Under the pieces are notes generated by a model that worked only from the letters and a program-made list of their open reading frames with translations, was not told the origin of the DNA and made no database searches. Made by a program: the position numbers and the translations under genes. Below are positions 5,703-37,857 of a DNA stretch of 64,000 bases, one piece after another; position 1 is the stretch's first letter; each line of letters starts with the position of its first letter. Origin of the DNA: an uncultured Bdellovibrionales bacterium (GTDB taxonomy: Bacteria; Patescibacteriota; Minisyncoccia; Moranbacterales; UBA1568); the NCBI GenBank assembly GCA_964530135.1, contig CAZGXN010000002.1, forward strand, positions 3,308 to 67,307, in the 5' to 3' direction.

Positions 5703-7208
5703 ATGTACGAAACAGCCATACACACGATCAGCCACCTCAAGAAAAAAATGCAGACCGCCAAGATGAAGGTGCCGGTCGTGTTCCATGTTGGCGATGAACT
5801 GATGCCCAGTGAATCAACACTCGAACAACTTGAAAGTGTGGCTGCGAACGATTCTGTTTTCCATCATATTGCTGCCATGGCCGATGTGCATTCGAAGCCA
5901 GGCCGAAAAAATGCCACTGGAACAACCGTCACATCCGAGAATTATATCCTCCCACAGGTCAATGACTCTGATCCAGCCTGTGGTATGCGCCTTGTAAAAA
6001 CGAATTTAACCGAAGAAAATATTACCCCTGAAGAGCTCGATATTCTCTTCCGTGAACTCGTCAAGACCGTTCCGACAAAAAAATTTATCGGGACCCGTGT
6101 TTCTTTCAAAACGATCGTCGATATCTGTCGTGGCGGCATTCAGCCGCTTATTCAGACACTACATATTCAGACTAAAAACGAAACAACTCACTGCCTTGAA
6201 AATGGAAATTTTTTTTCCAAGTCTGTATCTCGTGACACTATCTTTTCAGTTATTCCCAAACTCTTTCTCTGGTTTGCAACTTTTCGACTCGGCATCTTGG
6301 GTGCAGCCGGGAATCATTTTCTCGATCTCATGAAAGTCACTGGGATCGAAGATGAAGAAACCGCCCGAAAATTTGGACTTAAAAACGGACAGTATGTGTT
6401 TATGGTGCACTGCGGCTCTGGCATCCTCGGCCAGTACACGATGTACATGTACACTGCCAAGAAACGCGAACATTTCTCTCAAGCTCTGATGGTTGAGCTT
6501 GGCAAACTCCTCTTCCGCTCACCTTTGAAGTCAGTCTATAACCGCATCGCCAAGAAGATCAAAGCCTATCAATTCGGCGCCAAGGAAGAACTCTTCACCT
6601 ATGAGGGCAACGGACCCGAAGGCGAAATGTACATGACTGCACGCAATGCCTGCTCCAACTTTGCACATGCCAATCGTGCCGTCATCACCCACAATGTCAG
6701 CGAGACTATCAAACGCGTGCTCGGCCGCGATCCGGAATTAGAGCTTCTCTACGATATGCCCCATATTCTCGTTTCTCGTGAGGAACACTATGGAAAAAAT
6801 ATCTGGGTACACCGGAACGGCACTTCCAGAGCCTATGGACCGAGCCGCATGCAGCATCACCCGCTCTTCCGAGAAACTGGTGAACCCGCCTTCATCCCTT
6901 CTTCAATGTCGACCGAGGCCTTTCTCTGCGTCGGTCTCGATGGCAACGAGTCGAGCTTCTACTCCTGCAATCACGGCGCAGGAAAAGCCAAAGCGAAGTC
7001 GGACGCGCTCGTGCCGGAAGACAAGGCAGCGCTGCATGATAAGCTCAAGACCCGCGGCGTGAAACTCTACAACGGCCAATCCTCGAAAGTCATTGAGCAA
7101 GACTCATCCCACTACAAACGCATCGATGACATCATCGCGACCGTTACCGAGAACCAGGTCGTGAAGCCCGTCGCTCGGCTTATGCCAGTCGCAATCATTA
7201 TGTACTAA
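5703..7208 (+). CDS. RtcB-family 3'-phosphate/5'-hydroxyl nucleic acid ligase-like protein, divergent
   Basis: Motifs matching RtcB metal/GMP sites: 'MADVHSKPGRKNATGTTV' (cf. PDxHxGxG), 'DPACGMRL' (Asp/Cys site), 'MVHCGSGILG' (cf. HSGSRGLG), 'CNHGAGK' (cf. NHGAGR). Start placed at the first ATG after the upstream stop; the ORF-track start at 5601 overlaps the upstream gene. Confidence 0.65.
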   Translation: MYETAIHTISHLKKKMQTAKMKVPVVFHVGDELMPSESTLEQLESVAANDSVFHHIAAMADVHSKPGRKNATGTTVTSENYILPQVNDSDPACGMRLVKTNLTEENITPEELDILFRELVKTVPTKKFIGTRVSFKTIVDICRGGIQPLIQTLHIQTKNETTHCLENGNFFSKSVSRDTIFSVIPKLFLWFATFRLGILGAAGNHFLDLMKVTGIEDEETARKFGLKNGQYVFMVHCGSGILGQYTMYMYTAKKREHFSQALMVELGKLLFRSPLKSVYNRIAKKIKAYQFGAKEELFTYEGNGPEGEMYMTARNACSNFAHANRAVITHNVSETIKRVLGRDPELELLYDMPHILVSREEHYGKNIWVHRNGTSRAYGPSRMQHHPLFRETGEPAFIPSSMSTEAFLCVGLDGNESSFYSCNHGAGKAKAKSDALVPEDKAALHDKLKTRGVKLYNGQSSKVIEQDSSHYKRIDDIIATVTENQVVKPVARLMPVAIIMY

Positions 7209-13376: not shown

Positions 13377-15620
13377 ATGGTCAAACGCTTTTTTACCCCC
13401 TTTCTCTCGGGACTCCTCGCCCTCAACGCGCTTCTGTTTGTTGTACAACAATTCAAATGGTTTCCCCAGGCAAAGATTACCGAAACTGACGACATCTTTT
13501 ACTTTTTTTTCCTCGTTCTTGGCATCGTGTCCATCGGTGCTGTTCTCTATTTCACGCCCCTTCACCACATCCGCACCATCCTCGAAAAACTCCTAGTTAT
13601 TTTTTTCCCAACCGAACTGATTCTTATCTTCGGCCTGTCACAGTCAAAGAATTTTCACTATGTCTTCTTCATGGCCATTGGTGCCTATATTCTCCTTGCC
13701 GGTATGGTCGCTATTCATACGGCCATAACCCGTGAGACAGGCGAACGACCTCTTCTGCGGCATACATTTCGATCCGTTTTACCCTGGGGACAGGAACAAG
13801 GATTATCGACTCTCATTTTGGTTACCCTCCTCACGGGAATTTTTTTCTCATTCGGCGTCTCTGGACTGACTCGCTTTGCCGCAGTTGATGAACCCCTCTG
13901 GACTGATGGACGGATTCCAAAATATTGGCACAATATCGAAGAACATGACTGGCGTGGCACACGAATCAGTGACAAGCCCGGCATCACCGTGGCTCTCGCC
14001 GCTGGCCCGGGAATGTGGTTTATCAATACGAAAGACTACAAGGCGATCCGGTCGGCCAGTATCCTCAAAACCAATCACCTCAATATCGAAACCCTGTACT
14101 GGGCCTTTCGACTCCCCCTCCTCATCGTTATTACACTCTTCTTACCCTTCTTTTATATCTTTATAGAGCGGCTATTGAGCAAACGCGAAGCGCTCATTAC
14201 CTACGCCGCCATCACCCTTTCACCCATTCTCATCGGGATGAGCAAGATTATTAATCCGGATGCGCTCCTCTGGATCTTCGTCCCGCAAGCGCTATTCGCA
14301 TATCTTGTTTTTCTAAAACGCCGCCAATACCGCTACCTCATCCTCGCAGGTATCTTGGTCGGACTCGCACTCCTTACAAAATATGTTGCCAACTTTGTGA
14401 TCGTCTTCATGGTTGGACTCATCTTCCTGGAATGGCTGTATCAAGATACAACCCGCCAGTTATCACTCGCACACTATCTCAAAAGGTCTCTCTCCGAGCT
14501 TTCCATCCTTATCTTTACCGCCCTGGCCACTTTTTATGTTCTATTTCCGGCTGTCTGGATAAAGCCAGAAAAACTTATTACTTCGACTCTGTACAGCCAG
14601 GCCTTTGAAAAATTTGCGCCACTGTTTATTGTTCTCCTCATTTTCATCGGGATCGATCTGATGTGGAATCGCACCCGTGCGCTCGCATTTCTCCTCAGAC
14701 TCTTCGAACGCTACCGTGAGTGGCTCGGCTGGGGCATTGCCAGTCTCAGTATCACAGCGATCGCCTTTACCCTCATCAACAGCTGGCGGGGTATGCCTTG
14801 GTATGACTTCATGACACTCCTCGCTTCACCCAAGACAATTGCCGGCCACACTGATCTCATCGGTATTTTTCTTTCCAACTTCTACCCCCTTGTCTTTGGC
14901 TTCACGCCCATTATGCTGATCGGTATGCTCGCCGGCATCAGTCTCATATTCCGTAAAGCATTTTTCCAACAGGATACGGCTCGACTCGCATTCTACTGCA
15001 TTCTCTTTATCCTGCTCTACTATGTTGGAGCGACCGGCAACGGTGTCGCGATGATTGTCCGTTACCAGATCATCCTCTTCCCTATCGCGGCTCTCTTGGC
15101 CGCCCTTGGTCTCCTCGCGCTCTTTGACCGTTTCATCCGCACCCGGAGAGAACCGTTCTTTGCACTCTTTCTCGGTGTGATTATCCTCACGGGCATCGGG
15201 ACGCTCCGTATGACGCCCTTCCCACTCTCATATGCCTCAGGATTGCTACCGGTCCGATACCATACCGATGTAAAAGATATGGGTCCTGGGAGTTATGAAG
15301 CCGCACAGTGGCTCAATCAACAACCGAATGCTGAAAATCTTACTATCTGGACCGATAAGGACGGTGTCTGTAAGTTCTTCATCGGCCAGTGTCGTCGGGG
15401 TTTCGGTAACTATGCGACTCGGCGAGCTGAAGGAATTGACTATATTGTCGTCTCATCCGGACGAGAAAGCCGGACGACAAAGATGATCACAGCTCAGGTA
15501 AACAGCGGTGTGCCAGCTATCCGCTATGACCAGTACTATCAAAAGGATACTCCGGCGCACGAAATCCTGATCAATGGCCGGATCAATCACTTTGTAAAGA
15601 TATTTCGCTTTGCCGAGTAA
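13377..15620 (+). CDS. large polytopic membrane protein, putative GT-C-like glycosyltransferase
   Basis: 747 aa, more than 12 hydrophobic segments, 'FAAVDEPLW' acidic loop motif; function inferred only from architecture and context. Confidence 0.55.
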   Translation: MVKRFFTPFLSGLLALNALLFVVQQFKWFPQAKITETDDIFYFFFLVLGIVSIGAVLYFTPLHHIRTILEKLLVIFFPTELILIFGLSQSKNFHYVFFMAIGAYILLAGMVAIHTAITRETGERPLLRHTFRSVLPWGQEQGLSTLILVTLLTGIFFSFGVSGLTRFAAVDEPLWTDGRIPKYWHNIEEHDWRGTRISDKPGITVALAAGPGMWFINTKDYKAIRSASILKTNHLNIETLYWAFRLPLLIVITLFLPFFYIFIERLLSKREALITYAAITLSPILIGMSKIINPDALLWIFVPQALFAYLVFLKRRQYRYLILAGILVGLALLTKYVANFVIVFMVGLIFLEWLYQDTTRQLSLAHYLKRSLSELSILIFTALATFYVLFPAVWIKPEKLITSTLYSQAFEKFAPLFIVLLIFIGIDLMWNRTRALAFLLRLFERYREWLGWGIASLSITAIAFTLINSWRGMPWYDFMTLLASPKTIAGHTDLIGIFLSNFYPLVFGFTPIMLIGMLAGISLIFRKAFFQQDTARLAFYCILFILLYYVGATGNGVAMIVRYQIILFPIAALLAALGLLALFDRFIRTRREPFFALFLGVIILTGIGTLRMTPFPLSYASGLLPVRYHTDVKDMGPGSYEAAQWLNQQPNAENLTIWTDKDGVCKFFIGQCRRGFGNYATRRAEGIDYIVVSSGRESRTTKMITAQVNSGVPAIRYDQYYQKDTPAHEILINGRINHFVKIFRFAE

Positions 15621-16594
15621 TGCGTTGTTGATGGTCCTGAGTCTGTGGTACGGCGCAGGATGAGGTAGTTTGGTAATGCAAGAAAAGAAATGAGCATCTG
15701 GAGAAGCCGCGAGCACAAGGCAGCGGTTACTGCGAGTTCCGACGAAACACCGACGAGTCCGAAAAAAAAGACATAGGCCCATTCCTTCACGCCAATATTG
15801 TTAATAGAAATCGGGATATTGGCCACGAGCGTCGCTGCAAAGATAGCGCTCCCAAACGCCAGTAGTGAAATATCTGCTCCAAGGCTAGAAAAAAGTATAA
15901 AGTTACTGCCACCGATACCAACGAGGGTAAAGAGTGATGCCCAAAGTATGGTTTTCATGTATATGTTTCTGCTGATGAAGGGAACAAAATCCCCCAGAAG
16001 AAGCGTTGGTTTTTTCCAGGGTAACAATTCAAAAAGGGATACTGCGAGTGTATACAATCGCTCCACTACAAACAGTGCGAGAAGCATCGCGAGAGCCACT
16101 GAAAGCGTGATGGCAGCAAATAGTATGAATACCGGACGATCAAGGAGGATTTGCCAGGGCAACAGCGTAATTCCAATTCCAGAAAAAAGAAAGAGTGCCA
16201 AGAGGCCAGTGATGCGGTCAAACAAGACCACTGCAAAGGCACGGGATCGCTCACCGACTTTGGACATCCAAAATACTCGATACGCATCACCGCCAACAGT
16301 TGATGGAAGGAAGTTGTTTATGAGAGCCCCAGTGAGATAAGCAAAGACCCCTTCCTGTATCGAAAACTTAAACCCCTGAATGCGAGCGAGATACTGCCAC
16401 TTGGCGGAAGAAATGATATTTCCCAGTATCTGGACACCCATGTAAGCAAAAATCAGTGGTCCAGAAGCATTGGCCAAGATATGACCAACCACTGGCCAAT
16501 CAACTTTTTGGATAAGCCAGTATACGAGCACGGCACTCACGGCGATTTTCAGTACTGTTTTCCAATATTGCATATCTCTCACTATAGCAATCAT
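15587..16594 (-). CDS. LPG-synthase-TM / flippase-like domain (UPF0104) membrane protein
   Basis: 'NNFLPSTVGGDAYRVFWMSK' motif characteristic of the lysylphosphatidylglycerol-synthase TM / flippase-like family, about 8 TM helices; convergent 34-bp overlap with the upstream gene's 3' end. Confidence 0.6.
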   Translation of the reverse strand: MIAIVRDMQYWKTVLKIAVSAVLVYWLIQKVDWPVVGHILANASGPLIFAYMGVQILGNIISSAKWQYLARIQGFKFSIQEGVFAYLTGALINNFLPSTVGGDAYRVFWMSKVGERSRAFAVVLFDRITGLLALFLFSGIGITLLPWQILLDRPVFILFAAITLSVALAMLLALFVVERLYTLAVSLFELLPWKKPTLLLGDFVPFISRNIYMKTILWASLFTLVGIGGSNFILFSSLGADISLLAFGSAIFAATLVANIPISINNIGVKEWAYVFFFGLVGVSSELAVTAALCSRLLQMLISFLALPNYLILRRTTDSGPSTTHYSAKRNIFTK

Positions 16595-16603
16595 TCAGAC
16601 GAG

Positions 16604-16630
16604 TCGCTATTTTTTAGCGATTTTTTCTTT
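16604..16630 (+). terminator. hairpin plus T-tract (terminator-like) at the start of repeat copy 1
   Basis: TCGCTA-ttttt-TAGCGA followed by TTTTTTCTTTT. Confidence 0.45.
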
Positions 16631-16695
16631 TACCGAAGCCACATTTCCATATTTTCTCAGTATTGACTTATTCATAAATATGTGCTAATATGTGT
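16621..16695 (+). repeat. direct repeat copy 1 (about 70 bp, T-tract plus promoter module)
   Basis: ttttcttttaccgaagccacatttccatRttttctcagtattgacttattcata...gtgcta shared with 17894-17968 at roughly 90% identity. Confidence 0.85.
16663..16691 (+). promoter_or_regulatory. near-consensus sigma70-type promoter P1 (TTGACT, 17 bp spacer, TGc, TAATAT)
   Basis: -35 TTGACT 16663-16668, 17-nt spacer, extended -10 TGcTAATAT ending 16691; about 140-nt leader to the 16839 gene. Confidence 0.6.
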
Positions 16696-16838
16696 TGTCG
16701 CGTGCCTAGTGTGCGTGACAAGGGGTCTTTGTGCCTATCGTTGGTACTTTGACAATTTCAATCAGATATCCTGAAAAATTCGCCTCTTGTTTGTAGGGGG
16801 AGTAATGAGTTTTTCGGTGAATCTATACATCTGGAGAA

Positions 16839-17831
16839 ATGAAAATGAGCAGTTTGAGTACCTACCTGGGTCGGAAGAATTTCCACTTGATGGTCCGCGT
16901 GTTTTCCGTGACCGAGGCCGGCGTTGCGCAGCAATGCAAGGCAACACGCGAACTCGTGAACCGGGCGCTCGGCCTGAGATTCCACGGCCGCCCCGTGTTC
17001 TCCGGCATCAGCATCGTGGTACCCAGTTCGCCGGTGTATGTCAACTACGATTGCGGCCTCACGGCAGCAGCACTCGTGGATGAGTTCTGCGGCATGCACA
17101 AGGCCCCGTGCCCCATCCATGTCCGGGCTTACATGACGGGCGATCAATTCGTCGACGTATTCAACGAAGAGATCAACCATCTGGCTCGCGCGAAAGGACA
17201 CTACCTCCTGTCGATCTCGCCTGCCGTCCGGCATTACTGCAATGACACCGAGATGGCCAAGGTCATCACGGCCTGCCACAAGGGTGCCAAGATTGGCGGG
17301 CTCATCCTGCCGCAAGTCGAGGGCGTCGCCTGTGGTTTCGTTGGCAACATGTTCAGCTTCCTGGATATCGACGCAGCCATCCAAGTCGGCGGCTACCAAC
17401 ACTGCGCCCGCGACATTCGTCGAGATGACGAAACCTTCGTTGCGGTGCGCCACCCGACCGAAAAGGAGATCTCGATTCCGCTGAAAGCAGTCGAGGAAAC
17501 CCCGCTTATCGCTGCGATGCTGATCAAGCTTCGCGGGATACTCGAGACGGGTGAAATATCCGAGGAGGCCGTCCCCTTCATCGCGCCGATCCTTCCCGAA
17601 TCTTGGGAGGCTTGGCAACTGCCAGACCAAATTACTGGGTATGTGGCCTACCACGAGCTGAAGGTACGGTCGAAGTGGATCAGGCAGCGCGCCTTCCTCA
17701 GCATGCGTGGCCTCGCCTTCGATGACGTACGCCAGGCTGTCATGCCCGGTTACCGTCTGGAGGACTACGCCAGCGACAGCCGTTACGAACACCTCGTTTC
17801 GGCCATCAAGGCGACGGGATACCCCTTGTAG
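16839..17831 (+). CDS. hypothetical Cys-rich protein (330 aa) on the GC-rich island
   Basis: GGAG 9 nt upstream of ATG; about 60% GC versus about 48-50% in flanks; 8 Cys residues; protein-like composition, whereas the antisense ORF 16758..17792 is R/D/G/A-biased. Confidence 0.6.
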   Translation: MKMSSLSTYLGRKNFHLMVRVFSVTEAGVAQQCKATRELVNRALGLRFHGRPVFSGISIVVPSSPVYVNYDCGLTAAALVDEFCGMHKAPCPIHVRAYMTGDQFVDVFNEEINHLARAKGHYLLSISPAVRHYCNDTEMAKVITACHKGAKIGGLILPQVEGVACGFVGNMFSFLDIDAAIQVGGYQHCARDIRRDDETFVAVRHPTEKEISIPLKAVEETPLIAAMLIKLRGILETGEISEEAVPFIAPILPESWEAWQLPDQITGYVAYHELKVRSKWIRQRAFLSMRGLAFDDVRQAVMPGYRLEDYASDSRYEHLVSAIKATGYPL

Positions 17832-17863
17832 CCAAAGACGGCGGGGTAACCAGAGGCTCTGAA

Positions 17864-17902
17864 GCCGGCCAAGTGTAACAACACAGGGCCGGCTTTTTCT
17901 TT
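17864..17902 (+). terminator. intrinsic terminator after the 16839 gene
   Basis: GCCGGCC...GGCCGGC stem (7 bp) followed by TTTTTCTTTT; begins repeat copy 2. Confidence 0.7.
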
Positions 17903-17968
17903 TACCGAAGCCACATTTCCATGTTTTCTCAGTATTGACTTATTCATAGAAAGGTGCTATTATATAAA
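17894..17968 (+). repeat. direct repeat copy 2 (T-tract plus promoter module)
   Basis: see copy 1. Confidence 0.85.
17935..17963 (+). promoter_or_regulatory. near-consensus sigma70-type promoter P2 (TTGACT, 17 bp spacer, TGc, TATTAT)
   Basis: -35 TTGACT 17935-17940, 17-nt spacer, TGcTATTAT ending 17963. Confidence 0.6.
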
Positions 17969-18002
17969 GTTGCGTAAAAAATGCGCGACGAATTCACAGT
18001 CC

Positions 18003-18017
18003 GCTACCAATGGTAGC
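18003..18017 (+). promoter_or_regulatory. perfect 7-1-7 palindrome GCTACCA-a-TGGTAGC in the leader of the 18039 gene (candidate operator)
   Basis: read directly from sequence; lies between P2 and the SD. Confidence 0.35.
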
Positions 18018-18038
18018 TTTTCCAATCAGGAGATCTCA

Positions 18039-18530
18039 ATGAAAACTGGAACCTGCACTTACCAGGTGCGCACCTGTGTCCATTTCTTCGGCATCTACAA
18101 CGATTCGAAAAACAATATTGTGGTCGAAGACCGTGACCCGAACAAGGTCGCCATCCCCGACAAAGCCTACGCCTTTGTCTTTTATGACGAAGTGGTGGCC
18201 GAGGTGAAGCTCGAAATTGGCACGGTCGCACTCAAGAACGAGGCCACCGTCGATGGTCGTTATGTTGGTTGGCTGAATAAATCGTCCGTCCACTACTGTG
18301 GCGGCAGACTCTTCACCGTCGCCGAGGGCGAACGATTCTTCCGTGAACACGCCAGCGCCTTCTACGGCACGGGCGATCCTATGGACGGCGAAGACAACCT
18401 TTTCGACCTCATCCGTACGGGCAAGCGGCCTGGAGTGACCCACATCCTCCAGCAGCGCAATGGCGACATCACCCCCTTTTGCGAAGGCGTGGATGTGATC
18501 GTCCCCCTTCCCGAGCCCGCCACGGCCTGA
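18039..18530 (+). CDS. hypothetical protein (163 aa) on the GC-rich island
   Basis: AGGAG 6 nt upstream of ATG; the ORF-track TTG start at 17970 was rejected because it would begin inside the promoter; no recognisable domain. Confidence 0.55.
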   Translation: MKTGTCTYQVRTCVHFFGIYNDSKNNIVVEDRDPNKVAIPDKAYAFVFYDEVVAEVKLEIGTVALKNEATVDGRYVGWLNKSSVHYCGGRLFTVAEGERFFREHASAFYGTGDPMDGEDNLFDLIRTGKRPGVTHILQQRNGDITPFCEGVDVIVPLPEPATA

Positions 18531-18565
18531 ACCAATACCTGATACTCTTGTCAGGTAAATTGAAA

Positions 18566-18600
18566 GCCAGTGAACGATAACTACGTTCCCTGGCTTTTTT
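18566..18600 (+). terminator. intrinsic terminator after the 18039 gene
   Basis: 11-bp stem GCCAGTGAACG/CGTTCCCTGGC (1 mismatch), 7-nt loop, TTTTTT. Confidence 0.7.
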
Positions 18601-18614
18601 CTTTTCTCTCGAAA

Positions 18615-19781
18615 TTATTTCTTGATATTTTCTCCGAGAATGTTTCGAAAATTCTGCGCCACTTGATTCCAGCTGCGCTTTTCCGCGCGGCGACGGCTTT
18701 CTGTGCCGAAGAGAACTGCTTCCTCAGGATTATTTGCGATTCGAGCCAAGGCCGTCGCAAAGGATTCTGTATTTTCGGGCTGAACGAAAAGGCCGTTTGC
18801 ACCATCAGTCACGAGCTCGGCCATCCCGCCCGTACCGGAAACGATGAGCGGCAGACCCGAGGCAAGCGCTTCGAGTGCAGCATTACTCATCCCCTCGTTC
18901 TTTGACGGGAGAACGAACACATGCGAACGCTGATAGTATCCGGCGAGCTGGTCGTGCTCGACCCGGCCGATAAATTTCACTTGATCTGAAATGCCTAGCG
19001 CCTTAACGCGCTCTTCGAGCATCGGTTTCTGCTCCCCTTCACCGACGAGGTGGAGCTCGATCGGCTTGGCGGTTTTTTTGGTCGCGACTGCAAAGGCCTC
19101 GATGAGATGATGGATGCCTTTCCGTGGCGTGAGCCGTGAGGTCGAAAGGAAAACCGTCACATCTGTGGCTCGCTTTTTTGGGTCGGGACGGAATGTTTCG
19201 GTATCGACGCCGTTCTGAATCGTCTGCATCTCTTGGCGAAGAGCGGTCTTTCTCGCCAGTTCAGTCAGCCCAGCGCTATTCGGTATAACCGCTTCTGCCC
19301 GACGCCACAAGAAACGCACGAGTGGCCTGGCAAAAAGATAAAAAGTGTCATACTTCTCACTGAATCCCGGGACGTCCGCCCCGCGGAGCGATACGACATA
19401 TGGCACGCCGTAGACTAGCTTCACCAGATACGCCAGAAATCCACAGGGTACAGTGAAAAATGCCAGCGTTACATCGAACGGCTGTTTCTTCGTCTCGAGA
19501 CGCAAGAAACGCCAAAGGAAAAAGGCCGCCTGAAGAGAATAAATAAGAATATCCTTGAGGGATTGTGAATGGAGTTTTTCGGGGTTTTTCCCGATTGGCA
19601 AGCGGTGCACATACACCTCTCCACCGACCCGGATATGCTCTCTGACCCCACCGACGGCAGCAGTCACCAAATGAACCTCGATACTCGAATCCTTGGCCCA
19701 TTCGCGGAGAATGGCCTCGGTCGCGACACTCGCCCCGCCACCCAATGGCGGATATTCATAGTTAAGAAAGAGGACCTTCAT
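18615..19781 (-). CDS. GT4-family glycosyltransferase
   Basis: 'VLFLNYEYPPLGGGASVA', 'NEGMSNAALEALASGLPLIVSGTGGMAELV' (E-x7-E); start at first ATG (ORF-track 19790 is TTG). Confidence 0.85.
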   Translation of the reverse strand: MKVLFLNYEYPPLGGGASVATEAILREWAKDSSIEVHLVTAAVGGVREHIRVGGEVYVHRLPIGKNPEKLHSQSLKDILIYSLQAAFFLWRFLRLETKKQPFDVTLAFFTVPCGFLAYLVKLVYGVPYVVSLRGADVPGFSEKYDTFYLFARPLVRFLWRRAEAVIPNSAGLTELARKTALRQEMQTIQNGVDTETFRPDPKKRATDVTVFLSTSRLTPRKGIHHLIEAFAVATKKTAKPIELHLVGEGEQKPMLEERVKALGISDQVKFIGRVEHDQLAGYYQRSHVFVLPSKNEGMSNAALEALASGLPLIVSGTGGMAELVTDGANGLFVQPENTESFATALARIANNPEEAVLFGTESRRRAEKRSWNQVAQNFRNILGENIKK

Positions 19782-19796
19782 CGTTTTCAATCAGCG

Positions 19797-33287: not shown

Positions 33288-34286
33288 TCAGTTACTGAAA
33301 TAAAGCCTCTTCAAGTATTGATTGACGCGATTCGGCAATAAAAGGCGGATAAATAAGAGAGAATTCAAAGAAAGATCTCTGGAAAGATTTAAAGGGAATT
33401 TTTTCGCGTAAGAAAAGAATTCATTCCAAGCCTCCTTTTTTTGAGCATTTTCAAGATAAAATATGGTATTAAAGTAACGAGTCTTCCCCTTCATATATTG
33501 GATTGCCTTCTGCACATCTTGATTATTCGAAAATTCTTTTGAATAATCATCCAAAATCATAAGAAGTTGCTTTGACACCTTTACCGTCGAAGCTGAATTG
33601 TTAGTTGTGTGTTTTCTATATTTGAGTAAAACGTGATCAATGAAGTATATTTTATTTTTTGTCGAAAGGCGAAAATTAAAATCCCAATCAGAGGGGAGAA
33701 ATATTTTTTCATCGGAATCGAGACTTCTTGGGTATCCTGATATGGATAAAACTTCCTTTTTTATCATTATCTGGCTATATGTAGAAAAAAGTAATGTTTT
33801 AGCATATAGATACTCTGCCGGATCTATATTGCTATTTCTGTAGGTTTTCGTATCGAGCTTCTTATACATGTTATCAATAGTCGTATCACCAACATCATTG
33901 ATAATTTGAAAGTTGCAATATACCATTCCAAGATCCGGAAATTTTTCAAAAATCAACATCTTCTCAGCGAGATTCTCATTACAAAAAACATCATCACCCT
34001 CCAAGAAGGCCAGATATTCACCTTTCGAAGTATCAATAAGAAATTTCCAATTCGGAATAAGCCCCTTGTTTGTCTCATTTCTAAAAACCTTGATCCGACT
34101 GTCTTTCTGCGCGTATCCTTGGATAATCTCCCAACTCTTGTCAGACGAACAGTCATCCACAACCAAAAGCTCCCAATTTTGATATGTTTGGGAAATCACG
34201 CTTTCTATCGTTTCACCAATAAACTTCTCGTGGTTATAAACGGGAACGATTACTGAAATCAACGGTTGGTCGTTCTGATTACTCAT
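33288..34286 (-). CDS. GT2 glycosyltransferase (AT-rich cassette)
   Basis: 'ISVIVPVYNHEKFI', 'VVDDCSSDKS', 'EGDD'. Confidence 0.8.
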   Translation of the reverse strand: MSNQNDQPLISVIVPVYNHEKFIGETIESVISQTYQNWELLVVDDCSSDKSWEIIQGYAQKDSRIKVFRNETNKGLIPNWKFLIDTSKGEYLAFLEGDDVFCNENLAEKMLIFEKFPDLGMVYCNFQIINDVGDTTIDNMYKKLDTKTYRNSNIDPAEYLYAKTLLFSTYSQIMIKKEVLSISGYPRSLDSDEKIFLPSDWDFNFRLSTKNKIYFIDHVLLKYRKHTTNNSASTVKVSKQLLMILDDYSKEFSNNQDVQKAIQYMKGKTRYFNTIFYLENAQKKEAWNEFFSYAKKFPLNLSRDLSLNSLLFIRLLLPNRVNQYLKRLYFSN

Positions 34287-35031
34287 GATTTTTACAAATA
34301 CACACCAGATTCGGAGAAAGAATTTTTGGGTTGATTGTACCGATACCGAACCGGATAGCTTTTATGGTGCTGTTCACTAAAAGCTGCACACACCTGATTA
34401 TTACATCGCTTACAAAAAATCTAAGATAATTTATAATTCCTTTACCATAAATATTTATAGGAATTTTCTCCGAGTAAAGTTTTATATTTTTAAATCCAGA
34501 AGCCTCGCAAAGTTGGTAGAGAGATCTCTCAGTAAAAAAATTCACATGAGTAACATCCCAAAATGGCCCGACATAGAAAATATTCTGCACACTCGGCGTT
34601 ACAATGACTAATACACCATCTGTAGTAAGTGATTCCTTAATTTTTTGAAGAAAAATAACCGCCTCATCCCTTGAAATATGTTCGATAACATGGGAGAGGA
34701 ACACCAGGGAATATACCCCCTTTTTCGAATCAAGGAATAAGTTTGTATTTTCAACATGCTCGCATGGTAACCTTTGCTTCTGCGCCTCTATAATGAGATC
34801 CTCAGCAATATCTACTCCGTAACAATTTTCATACCCAAACAACTTGAGCGCTCTGAGCGTCCTCCCATTTCCGACTCCTATATCAAGGATGTGGGCAGTT
34901 TTTTCTTTCGGAAAAAACGAATTAAAATTCTTAATCAGATATCTCTGATACTGCTTTTCTTCATCCTGATTCAACAAAACTTGGTTGTAGCTATTCTGTA
35001 AATAGTTGTTATAAAATTGCTTGGAGTTCAT
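34279..35031 (-). CDS. class I SAM-dependent methyltransferase (AT-rich cassette)
   Basis: motif I 'ILDIGVGNGR', 'VFLSHVIEHI'. Confidence 0.75.
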   Translation of the reverse strand: MNSKQFYNNYLQNSYNQVLLNQDEEKQYQRYLIKNFNSFFPKEKTAHILDIGVGNGRTLRALKLFGYENCYGVDIAEDLIIEAQKQRLPCEHVENTNLFLDSKKGVYSLVFLSHVIEHISRDEAVIFLQKIKESLTTDGVLVIVTPSVQNIFYVGPFWDVTHVNFFTERSLYQLCEASGFKNIKLYSEKIPINIYGKGIINYLRFFVSDVIIRCVQLLVNSTIKAIRFGIGTINPKILSPNLVCICKNHE

Positions 35032-36347
35032 AAACTTGCAAGATATTTGTTGCAGAAATATTTATTCAGTATAGCATTTGCAAAGAAAATTGTGGCATAT
35101 GCAGCAACTACTAGGTACAGTGTAAGTAAGCCAAGAACCCCCATTGTAATCAGAAAGGAAAAATACACAACTACAATAAAAAACCAAGCAAGAAAAAGAT
35201 TTCTTACAATCTTCTGTTTTCCACCAGAAATTACAATAAATCCAAAAAGACTTCCGTAAAGATTAAACAGCGAATATACACTAAAAAACAATATGATTAG
35301 ATAATCAGTTGGGTATTCCTTACCATAAAGCCCTAGACCTAAGAAGATAATTAGGGCTGACAAAATAAACCATCCTATGCCTAGAATGGGAAAGATCTTA
35401 TCTATTTTTTTTGCAATTTCAGCTTTATTCTCAGCCTGGGCAACTGCTGGAAAATATACTGACGAAAAAAAAGCGATGAATTGGCCAGTAGCGAGAGCGG
35501 AAAGAGTGTAATAAGCATTATAAAAACCCAGTTCCCTCGAGCCAATAAACGTATTAATAAGAATACTTGTTCCGCTTTGGATCAAATAGCCAGAAATCAC
35601 ACCAAGAAAGATAACGGAAGAAAACAGGAACAATTCTTTTAAGATGTCTCTATCAAAAAAAAGTCCAAAATATGACCCTACTTTAACAAAAAAAACTATC
35701 AGTACCAATACTAATGCACATACATTCAATATTATAAACCATGCAAGAGAGAAAGTTTCTTTAAACGAAAAGTACAGCACAATAATCGAAAGCAACAAAA
35801 ATATTCCTTGGAAAATCCGAACTGTATTGACGAATATAAATTGATTCAGAAGTTTTAAATAATTTTCAAGCGCAACCGCAAGCGCGTTTGTCATTGAAAA
35901 GAGTAGGGCAAAAACAAGAAACAATGTCGGTAAACCAAGCAATTCAGCAACAAGATCACCGAAAATTAAGAATATAAAAGACCAAAAAATTGAATTGAGA
36001 AAGAAAAATATAATATATGTGGATAGTATATTTTTCCTTCTTTCCTCATCTCCCTTGGCCGCAAGACGAATAATGGTGGTTTCAAGTCCGAATGAAAGAA
36101 AAATTGTCAGAAAGGAGTAAAGAGCCACATATACGGCATATCTCCCATACTCAACCGGACCGAGAAACCTTCCAGCGAGTACGGAAACTACCAACAATAG
36201 CAAAGAGGATATTGCTCCACCGAAAAAAGAAATGCCAAGATTCCCGAGGAATTTCCGCATCTCTTCCCCCATCTCGTGCCCAAAAATCCGGAGATGAATA
36301 ATTTCCGCGATACGATAGAATGTGTTTTTTATAGTTTCAAAAATCAT
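35028..36347 (-). CDS. Wzx-type oligosaccharide flippase (second copy, AT-rich cassette)
   Basis: 'GRFLGPVEYGRYAVYVALYSF' paralogous to the 7886 flippase motif, about 12 TM; start uncertain (36347 or 36272; ORF-track 36464 overlaps the divergent neighbour). Confidence 0.7.
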   Translation of the reverse strand: MIFETIKNTFYRIAEIIHLRIFGHEMGEEMRKFLGNLGISFFGGAISSLLLLVVSVLAGRFLGPVEYGRYAVYVALYSFLTIFLSFGLETTIIRLAAKGDEERRKNILSTYIIFFFLNSIFWSFIFLIFGDLVAELLGLPTLFLVFALLFSMTNALAVALENYLKLLNQFIFVNTVRIFQGIFLLLSIIVLYFSFKETFSLAWFIILNVCALVLVLIVFFVKVGSYFGLFFDRDILKELFLFSSVIFLGVISGYLIQSGTSILINTFIGSRELGFYNAYYTLSALATGQFIAFFSSVYFPAVAQAENKAEIAKKIDKIFPILGIGWFILSALIIFLGLGLYGKEYPTDYLIILFFSVYSLFNLYGSLFGFIVISGGKQKIVRNLFLAWFFIVVVYFSFLITMGVLGLLTLYLVVAAYATIFFANAILNKYFCNKYLASL

Positions 36348-36351
36348 AAAT

Positions 36352-37857
36352 ATGGCTTTTTCAAGCCTTTCTAGTATACTGCTATATATGATCGCAGGGC
36401 AAACTAAGAACGCTCCCCCTATAGAACTTGGTGTGTTGGTTTTGCTGCTGGCTATTTTTTCCATTCTTGGAATATGGCTTGCCCTCCTCGTACCCTATTT
36501 CCAGGGGCCGGATGAGCAGGTACACTACGCCACCATACAATACTGGACAGAACCGGACGAAAAAAACTGGCTAATCACGAATAGTCACACACTCAATCAA
36601 GGTAATAATATCCGTACTTATAATTTTTCAGAGGAAGTCCAAGAAACAGCCCAACGGATGCAATTTGACGAAATAAAGTGGCAGGAAACGAACACGCAGT
36701 CTTTTTCAGCCGGTCGAGAAGGTCTAAAAGAAAACGAAGTAAAAGAAAACAACTGGAAGCGGTATATCGATGTCTATCCCCCGAACGCTTCCGGCACCTG
36801 GTCGCTCTACTATTGGCTAGGCTCAGGCATCGAGTCATTCTTCTCGGATCGATCGATCTTTGACCGCCTCTTCTTCGCCCGCCTCCTCTCGGTCGGTCTC
36901 GGCGCTCTGACCGTTCTCATCGCCTTCCTGTGCGCCCGAAAGCTCGGCTGGCCGCCGACCTTGGCCACGCTTTTCGCTTCACTTATCGCCTTTCAGCCAA
37001 TGTTTCTCGCCACGAGTGCTGTCATTAATATCGATATTCTCCTCGCCTTCGCCTTCTCGCTCTTCTTCTGCGGGGCAGCCCTCTGGATCACTGCTGGACC
37101 GACTATACAATCAGTCAGCCTCACTATGGTCGCGATGCTCATTGGGCTTTTCACCAAGGGTCCGGGCGTTGTCCTCATCGGCCTCCTCTTCGTGCTCATA
37201 CTCTTTTCTCTCTACCGCCGCTATGGAACACGCTGCCGCGATTTCCTCCCCTATTGCCTCTTGGCTGGATTCATCGTCACGAGCCTCTTCTTCATCTTTA
37301 CCCCGGCCCATATCCTCGCTAATTTCCTCCACCTCGGATCAAACTCGAGCTTTTCTGCCCCCCTCGAATCAATCAGCGCCTATCTGGAGAAAACCCTCAC
37401 CTCAGGGGCGATTGTCTGGACCGCGATGACCTACTGGGGCAGCTTTGGCTGGCTCGATACGAATCTCCCTCAATCTATCATCAGCATACTCCTCACGACC
37501 GAAACCATCTCGCTCTTCGGACTCATCTGGTTTTTCTTTGACAAAGCTCCGCCCCGCTTCCTTCCCAGCAAACATATTCTTTTTTTCGCACTCATTTCAA
37601 TTCTTTTCCTCCAATTCGCCATCCGTTTCTTCGATTGGCGCGTCTTCGATGCTACTGGCAAGATCCTGAGCGGTACTCCCGGGCGCTATTTCCTGCCGAA
37701 CATCATCCCCCACCTCCTCCTCGTGGTTTCGGGTCTCGGTTATTTCGTCCGGACGAGAGCATCCTTCCAGAAACTTCTTCTCCTACTTTCGATCTCCTTT
37801 TTCACTCTCACCTCGTACGCCCTCTGGTTCATCATCCTCCCTCGCTACTACCTATGA
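36352..37857 (+). CDS. polytopic membrane protein, GT-C-like / DUF2142-like (function inferred from context)
   Basis: 'PYFQGPDEQVHYA' acidic first-loop motif, more than 10 TM helices; start uncertain (36352 or 36388). Confidence 0.55.
   Translation: MAFSSLSSILLYMIAGQTKNAPPIELGVLVLLLAIFSILGIWLALLVPYFQGPDEQVHYATIQYWTEPDEKNWLITNSHTLNQGNNIRTYNFSEEVQETAQRMQFDEIKWQETNTQSFSAGREGLKENEVKENNWKRYIDVYPPNASGTWSLYYWLGSGIESFFSDRSIFDRLFFARLLSVGLGALTVLIAFLCARKLGWPPTLATLFASLIAFQPMFLATSAVINIDILLAFAFSLFFCGAALWITAGPTIQSVSLTMVAMLIGLFTKGPGVVLIGLLFVLILFSLYRRYGTRCRDFLPYCLLAGFIVTSLFFIFTPAHILANFLHLGSNSSFSAPLESISAYLEKTLTSGAIVWTAMTYWGSFGWLDTNLPQSIISILLTTETISLFGLIWFFFDKAPPRFLPSKHILFFALISILFLQFAIRFFDWRVFDATGKILSGTPGRYFLPNIIPHLLLVVSGLGYFVRTRASFQKLLLLLSISFFTLTSYALWFIILPRYYL

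Follow-up and report, generated by a model that had tools for sequence, protein, structure and literature searches.

In the cell-envelope glycan locus of an uncultivated, ultra-small member of the Patescibacteria from a Moranbacteria-like lineage, two adjacent genes, here called A and B, are preceded by almost the same run of non-coding sequence, and the question that the locus raises is how two different genes came to share it. The stretch of DNA analyzed (hereafter the window) comprises 64,000 nucleotides (nt) of contig CAZGXN010000002.1 in assembly GCA_964530135.1. We favor, with some reserve, the reading in which the shared sequence makes up the upstream two-thirds of a linker, composed of a terminator and a promoter, that separates single-gene cassettes, and in which its two copies have been homogenized by a recent ectopic exchange.

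A near-identical direct repeat upstream of two genes

The two copies (16622-16703 and 17894-17975; Table 1) form a direct repeat of 82 nt that is 88% identical overall. The similarity is unevenly distributed, with the first 55 nt constituting a core in which 54 of 55 positions agree, the single difference being an A/G substitution, and with identity falling to 18/27 beyond it (Fisher p = 1e-4). Sequence on either side of the copies is unrelated (9/40 identical on the left, 20/60 on the right). An original prediction, made from the letters of the window, had put the identity at about 90%, and over the span that it used the value is indeed 66/74, or 89%; the repeat that it described is real, and only its start for copy 1 is displaced by one base, reflecting an extra T in that copy.

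The core occurs exactly twice in the window when up to three mismatches are tolerated, and none of 100 shuffled controls gave a 55-mer match at that tolerance. The arrangement is the same base for base in three other assemblies (L010, L011, and L012) and is present in a strain that is 99.4% identical (L013), with one single-nucleotide polymorphism, in copy 2; its appearance in these four assemblies therefore excludes an assembly artifact. A partial third copy located after the B terminator (18594-18640) was considered and not counted: its score was reached in 3% of shuffles, and cross-genome control comparisons scored roughly as high.

Miniature inverted-repeat transposable elements (MITEs), as well as elements of the repetitive extragenic palindromic (REP), BOX, and Correia-like kinds, can supply promoters and terminators. 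The copies described here are likewise short and non-coding, and a mobile or interspersed element of this type, carrying an outward-facing promoter, could have been inserted before both genes. Such an origin is extremely unlikely. The REP/BOX-type ubiquity that the original prediction had allowed for was not encountered, there being just the two copies in 64 kb and no exact match to the core in 185,579 GTDB genomes, JGI metagenomes, or IMG/VR. In addition to this lack of dispersed copies, the repeat has neither palindromic or inverted ends (its longest inverted word is 7 nt) nor a target-site duplication, and it is orthologous to promoter modules that reside in the same chromosomal slot of related genomes.

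Anatomy of the repeat

Both copies follow one layout, in which TTTTTCTTTT is succeeded by the box GAAGCCACATTTCC, 14 nt, the -35 hexamer TTGACT, a 14-nt spacer, and then TGCTAATAT in copy 1 or TGCTATTAT in copy 2. Compared with the sigma-70 consensus (TTGACA and TATAAT separated by 17 +/- 1 nt), copy 1 offers TTGACT, 17 nt, and TAATAT (9/12 positions), and copy 2 offers TTGACT, 17 nt, and TATTAT (10/12). TG also stands one base 5′ of the -10 hexamer in both copies, as in extended -10 promoters. The two promoters originally predicted were both recovered by a promoter scan, and the full extended -10 consensus occurs at only two sites in the window, each of them within a copy of the repeat. This likeness to extended -10 sigma-70 promoters comprises the -35 hexamer, the spacing, and the TG, and the same geometry recurs in 18 related modules; the difference is that a conserved AAGCCA-type box is found here in place of an A/T-rich UP element. 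A literature search yielded no transcription start data for this lineage and nothing relevant on Patescibacteria promoters.

A stem-loop begins 4-6 nt past the -10 hexamer in each copy. The transcript of A is predicted to start at about 16697-16699, and the predicted leaders are ~147 nt (A) and ~69 nt (B) long. Stem-loops at the 5′ terminus stabilize mRNA in the Escherichia coli ompA leader and in the Bacillus subtilis aprE and ermC leaders. The stem-loops of the present system resemble these stabilizers in lying at or beside the predicted +1 position in all 18 modules, with sequences that vary from one to another; they differ in that the 5′ end is a predicted one and that the inverted repeat could instead be an operator acting at the DNA level.

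A G+C-rich hairpin with a T-tract lies right after a co-directional gene at two places, namely after A (17861-17903) and after B (18562-18609), as is typical of intrinsic terminators that serve as insulators. The T-tail of the A terminator is at the same time the first 10 nt of copy 2. The two differing hairpins that had been predicted ahead of the copies are both present. The proposed succession of terminator, promoter, and gene, repeated twice and closed by a terminator, likewise holds as a description of the anatomy, with the reservation that the first hairpin, although terminator-like, would not be the terminator of any gene, as the gene upstream of it lies on the minus strand.

Taken as a unit, a cassette would open with an intrinsic terminator whose tail is T5-6CT4 and continue with a box of the AAGCCA type, TTGAC[AT], 17 nt of spacer that close with the TG motif, and TAnnAT, and then, from the predicted +1, with a stem-loop, a leader, a ribosome-binding site (RBS), and a GC-rich gene. 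From this organization we infer that each gene would be transcribed separately from a near-consensus promoter for the housekeeping sigma factor, that terminators on both sides would shield it from its neighbors, and that the 5′ stem-loop probably stabilizes the mRNA.

A variable slot in related genomes

Genes A and B have minus-strand neighbors on both sides, namely an LPG_synthase_TM gene (15587-16594) that is divergent from them and a GT1/GT4 gene (18615-19790) that is convergent with them. The slot between these two genes is kept in at least 12 related genomes, and the content of its cassettes differs among them. A and B are the occupants in the window, whereas the slot holds A only in L001; B and C in L004 and L005; B, C, an EamA gene, and a fourth gene in L008; C, EamA, and A in L006; C in L016, L022, and L038; a distant A in L019 and L024; and a distant C in L026. 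The A-before-B order is confined to the present genome, while in the relatives B comes first and A last. The original prediction had also seen in the repeat a possible substrate for recombination; among five contigs carrying B, none represents an A-deleted variant. Seven GTDB loci and one JGI locus were found through an exact match to a boundary element that marks the right-hand end of the slot, and the search of JGI metagenomes with this element returned one true locus (L038) and 12 chance hits.

The linkers of these relatives are built in the same way. In all 18 readable cassette promoters, TTGAC[AT] is followed after 14 nt by the extended -10 position, with a fixed spacing of 17 nt to TAnnAT, and the TG of the extended -10 motif (TGcTAnnAT) is present in 15 of them. 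The downstream hairpin starts 4-6 nt past the -10 hexamer in 18/18 modules, with stem sequences that differ between modules, and in 16 of the 18 no more than 5% of shuffles fold equally well. An AAGCCA-type box is found upstream in most modules, and a terminator whose tail is T5-6CT4 stands ahead of the internal ones. Slot DNA contains 10 sites with the strict extended -10 consensus in 25 kb, whereas 150 kb of flanking DNA contain none (binomial p = 3e-9). Because these genomes have reached saturation at synonymous sites (dS 1.5-2.0), the conserved non-coding bases of the promoters must be under constraint, which points to a function. The original prediction had likened the insulation scheme to an engineered one; since the same scheme, with 18 homologous promoter modules, is found in at least 12 natural, metagenome-derived genomes, it is not engineered.

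The cassette genes are also set apart by composition. The GC content at third codon positions (GC3) of A, B, and C is 0.65-0.83 in every genome (the window, L001, and L004-L009), compared with 0.48-0.61 in the flanks; EamA is not GC-rich. In the window, the values for A and B (0.75 and 0.71) bear out the predicted GC-richness of the island genes and can be set against 0.44-0.66 in most of the other long open reading frames (ORFs). This bias is old and maintained; considered alongside the near-consensus promoters, it may be a sign of high expression and not of a recent foreign origin.

A fixed chromosomal slot filled with variable, co-oriented small genes that each end in a hairpin is reminiscent of an integron cassette array, and the terminator hairpins or linkers might then be site-specific recombination sites of the attC kind; the invariant 19-nt palindromic apex of the right-hand boundary element would be in keeping with this. 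We nevertheless consider an integron-like array very unlikely. Neither a tyrosine nor a serine recombinase, an adjacent integron integrase included, is encoded among the long ORFs of the window or in the flanking DNA that was analyzed, and the attC core GTTRRRY occurs at none of the cassette boundaries (within the slot it is absent from the plus strand and appears once on the minus strand, inside gene A). Moreover, each cassette here has its own promoter, which typical integron cassettes lack, and the repeat is direct rather than an imperfect palindrome.

Origin of the near-identity

Orthologous modules of the relatives are 25-64% identical to the repeat upstream of the -35 hexamer and 48-79% identical across the promoter core, which places the 54/55 agreement within one genome far above the agreement between genomes, as is characteristic of gene conversion and concerted evolution. 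The portions of each copy that lie downstream of the shared tract behave differently. Despite the saturation of synonymous sites, the A leader is 85% identical to those of L006 and L007, whereas the A promoter and its L006 counterpart are only 62% identical in the core and 32% identical in the upstream part; the region shared by the repeat copies would therefore have been exchanged separately from the leader. The start region of B, in turn, has its match in the leaders that precede B in L004, L005, and L008. Because the downstream parts match orthologous leaders in this way, each copy can be divided into an upstream part common to both and a downstream part that is specific to its gene.

Repeated linkers also occur within other genomes. 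L004 has a repeat of 23 nt, exact and situated upstream of both of its promoters (5887-5909 and 6565-6587); L022 has one of 27 nt at 81% identity (1354-1380 and 2441-2467); and in L023 a repeat of 89 nt at 92% identity spans the leaders of two successive cassettes (21-109 and 1192-1280). Given these independent repeats, the near-identity is best read as a recent product of ectopic recombination or gene conversion, and the cassette-style recombination that had been proposed at the outset fits both these repeats and the differently ordered cassettes in the slots of relatives. L016 and L023 are two contigs of one metagenome-assembled genome (MAG), and the boundary element is present on both of them.

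In this favored reading, copies 1 and 2 would owe their near-identity to concerted evolution, in that two paralogous linkers recently underwent homologous exchange at ectopic positions. The exchange would have been either a gene conversion or a crossover, unequal or of the Campbell type, linked to the order in which A precedes B. The exchanged tract would have its left end in the shared T-tail and its right end in the spacer or in the shared TGCTAnnAT, motifs that all linkers have in common, and 3′ of it each copy would retain its own gene-specific start region and leader. Sharp tract ends within shared motifs, as well as the analogous repeats in other genomes, are in line with known cases of gene conversion, from which the present one differs in that the tract is very short and belongs to a regulatory linker rather than to a gene or a ribosomal RNA spacer.

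A single crossover could also have produced this arrangement without any later gene conversion, if a circular or sister-chromosome copy bearing the upstream part of the linker, the A leader, A, and its terminator crossed over inside the linker that precedes B, so that ~55-80 nt of homology were duplicated by the insertion of A. The two direct copies flank A exactly, the gene order is peculiar to this genome, and the hairpin, tail, and box after A resemble the linker that precedes A in L006, all of which would follow from such an event. However, the donor must already have carried a near-identical linker, and L004 and L022 possess linker repeats with no change in gene order, which favors conversion; we therefore hold the single crossover to be rather unlikely, albeit a competitor to be taken seriously.

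Conceivably, no recent exchange took place at all, and the box together with the -35 region is a binding site through which one regulator controls A and B jointly. An AAGCCA-type box does lie upstream of the -35 hexamer in most modules of all genomes, and in several of these (L006, L038, and L001) it forms one arm of a short inverted repeat. Yet selection on a site would not be expected to hold 54 of 55 consecutive bases, T-tail and filler included, when orthologous modules share 25-64%, and the slot encodes no regulator. Selection of this kind is thus an improbable explanation.

Several points weigh against exchange between linkers or restrict what can be said of it. Gene conversion and crossover duplication leave an identical final sequence, and retrieval by exact match biases the sample toward slots that keep the boundary element. 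The copy count covers 64 kb of this genome, so that further copies may exist elsewhere in it. Where transcripts start and end, and how strong the promoters are, is predicted. Ahead of copy 1, a hairpin and a T-tract are present (16601-16631), but this hairpin is weak, with only three G-C pairs, and follows no co-directional gene; it may be a read-through insulator or a part of the 5′ region of the divergent LPG_synthase gene, and the most that it could do is to block antisense transcription that reads through from a plus-strand PMT-family gene ending at 15620. Finally, promoters do not sort cleanly into an A-type and a B-type, as TTGACT and TTGACA forms both precede C-type genes. The forms are not tied to gene type and so do not indicate which copy was donor and which recipient; the proposal that the A promoter is "B-type" and that copy 2 was the donor was dropped for this reason. 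For the fourth gene of L008, which stands behind a TTGACT promoter, a likeness to A could not be demonstrated.

Table 1. Coordinates of features in the slot and of the right-edge element in related loci
Feature	Position	Strand	Details
Hairpin before copy 1, AT-rich	16601..16623	+	GAGTCGCTA/TAGCGATTT; -11.3 kcal/mol, z -4.0; directly 5′ of the copy 1 T-tract
Repeat copy 1	16622..16703	+	T-tail TTTTTCTTTT; box GAAGCCACATTTCC 16635-16648; -35 TTGACT 16663-16668; extended -10 TGCTAATAT 16683-16691
Predicted 5′ stem-loop of A transcript	16695..16721	+	TTGTCGCGTGC...GCGTGACAA; -14.0 kcal/mol; 0.3% of shuffles fold equally well
Gene A leader (predicted)	16722..16844	+	invariant CTTTGACA 16747-16754; 25-pair hairpin 16763-16825
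Gene A	16845..17831	+	328 aa, counted from the ATG that is correctly spaced from the RBS; ORF opens at 16839; GC3 0.75; dN/dS 0.08-0.13
Predicted intrinsic terminator of gene A	17861..17896	+	GAAGCCGGCC...GGCCGGCTT; -24.6 to -26.2 kcal/mol, z -4.7
Repeat copy 2	17894..17975	+	T-tail; box GAAGCCACATTTCC 17907-17920; -35 TTGACT 17935-17940; extended -10 TGCTATTAT 17955-17963
Predicted 5′ stem-loop of B transcript	17969..17989	+	GTTGCGTA...TGCGCGAC; -10.2 kcal/mol; 0/300 shuffles
Gene B	18039..18530	+	163 aa; GC3 0.71; RBS GGAGA 18029-18033; dN/dS 0.22-0.28
Right-edge slot element	18536..18609	+	hairpin 18536-18557; predicted terminator 18562-18598 with invariant apical GTGAACGATAACTACGTTCC; tail TTCTTTTCTCT; z -7.0
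Right-edge element in relatives	L001 6970-7053; L004 7601-7684; L006 2683-2766; L007 1092-1175		also in L016, L019, L022-L026, L038

Cassette genes and the A leader

Judged by their sequences and those of their homologs, A and B are real genes. Close homologs are few, amounting to five for A and four for B among 5.8 billion proteins, and neither gene belongs to a family in Pfam, PADLOC, PHROGs, or NCBIfam. In an exhaustive profile search, A fell into an uncharacterized family of ~167 cluster representatives that has no sequence match in Pfam or the PDB. The AlphaFold2 model of the A product has a predicted local distance difference test score (pLDDT) of 63 overall and ~85 over the N-terminal 150 residues, and it weakly resembles glycosyl- and nucleotidyl-transferases of the GT-A fold (best match PcManGT, E = 1e-4, template modeling score 0.46). 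A weak match of this kind is no more than suggestive of a GT-A-like fold. The model of the B product is unusable (pLDDT 49), and a literature search on Moranbacteria glycosyltransferases found nothing relevant. The cassette protein C (encoded at 6740-7603 in L004) and the profile of the A family align weakly over the central region (hhalign probability 65%, E = 6e-5), and it could be that A and C are distant paralogs.

The A leader contains CTTTGACA, which is invariant in 7/7 A-type leaders, and a 25-pair hairpin in which an alignment of four sequences reveals four compensatory pairs. This covariation was assessed with the four closer leaders, as the seven A-type leaders together are too diverged for RNAalifold. 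An ATG (16805) lies inside the hairpin, and the length of its reading frame is not conserved. The leader can thus be put forward as a candidate cis-regulatory RNA that has no known family.

The right-edge element

The element downstream of B combines a hairpin with the B terminator and stays in place regardless of whether the last cassette is A, B, or C. Its apex, TGAACGATAACTACGTTCC (19-20 nt), is itself able to form a 5-bp stem with a 7-nt loop; it is unchanged in the five genomes retrieved by protein similarity, in which the basal stem shows compensatory changes. Ordinary intrinsic terminators have no need of such an invariant apical 19-mer. The element has no Rfam family, and a scan of positions 16000-19000 with the covariance models of Rfam 15 returned a single hit, to a snoRNA, which is a chance match (E = 0.62, with a score well short of the gathering cutoff). 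The A terminator, for its part, resembles the EamA terminator that precedes A in L006. Conceivably, the right-edge element acts as a terminator in both directions, with a loop that binds a protein; it might also be a small RNA derived from the 3′ untranslated region, or a DNA site.

Locus and host

The window as a whole is occupied by a large glycan-biosynthesis locus, with GT1/GT4, GT2, and PMT_2-type enzymes, flippases, and a UDP-glucose dehydrogenase, and also with an epimerase, an asparagine synthase, and a methyltransferase. Housekeeping genes in the window encode PheRS, TyrRS, SecDF, a penicillin-binding protein, DnaJ, and RecJ, and Pfam scans of its long ORFs detected no integrase or transposase. 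A low-GC block on the minus strand (33288-36464), in which a Polysacc_synt flippase gene accompanies two GT2 genes, has a GC content of 0.35-0.36 and a GC3 of 0.32-0.39, where the window has 0.49; its composition gives it the appearance of foreign DNA and of a second insert in the locus. Another variable point is the site between the GT1 and UDP-glucose dehydrogenase genes, where an NYN-domain gene (162 aa) that is absent from the window is found in L004 (8935-9423) and L019 (5334-5819). In L019, a consensus promoter at 5891 adjoins the NYN gene on the opposite strand.

The related contigs stem from MAGs titled either Candidatus Moraniibacteriota, a phylum of the Patescibacteria (three MAGs), or "uncultured Bdellovibrionales" (three MAGs). 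Contigs from differently titled MAGs (L019, L022, and L026 versus L016, L023, L024, and L025) share a syntenic locus with a UDP-glucose dehydrogenase identity of ~85% (~82-89%). The two labels conflict, and one of them is probably wrong.

Implications

Duplication or conversion of a short regulatory segment is an ordinary phenomenon, and the repeat is a tidy natural example of it rather than a new kind of element. Its ingredients, namely an extended -10 promoter, an intrinsic terminator, and gene conversion, are familiar; the boundary element and the structured A leader are less expected. What can be read directly from the genomes is a repeat of defined anatomy, conserved in its parts, within a slot of variable content, from which we infer a history of recombination. 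As a small natural system, it would be one in which regulatory linkers, and not genes, are exchanged inside a genome, at a hotspot where the set of glycan-related genes varies among close relatives. The comparison also defines a predicted strong promoter, a style of terminator, and a probable 5′ stabilizer hairpin for a lineage of the candidate phyla radiation, and these linker parts could be used for genetic tools in such organisms.

More tentatively, it seems possible, if short of probable, that the slot is a recombinase-free cassette array, in which glycan genes are acquired, lost, rearranged, and duplicated by homologous recombination between terminator-promoter linkers that evolve in concert. 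Its members may be accessory surface-glycan genes, GC-rich and possibly highly expressed, arranged in units of promoter, 5′ hairpin, and terminator, and its right anchor may be the two-hairpin element whose 19-nt apex is invariant despite saturated synonymous divergence. The linkers would then serve as both the expression hardware and the shuffling hardware by which an ultra-small episymbiont diversifies its cell surface.

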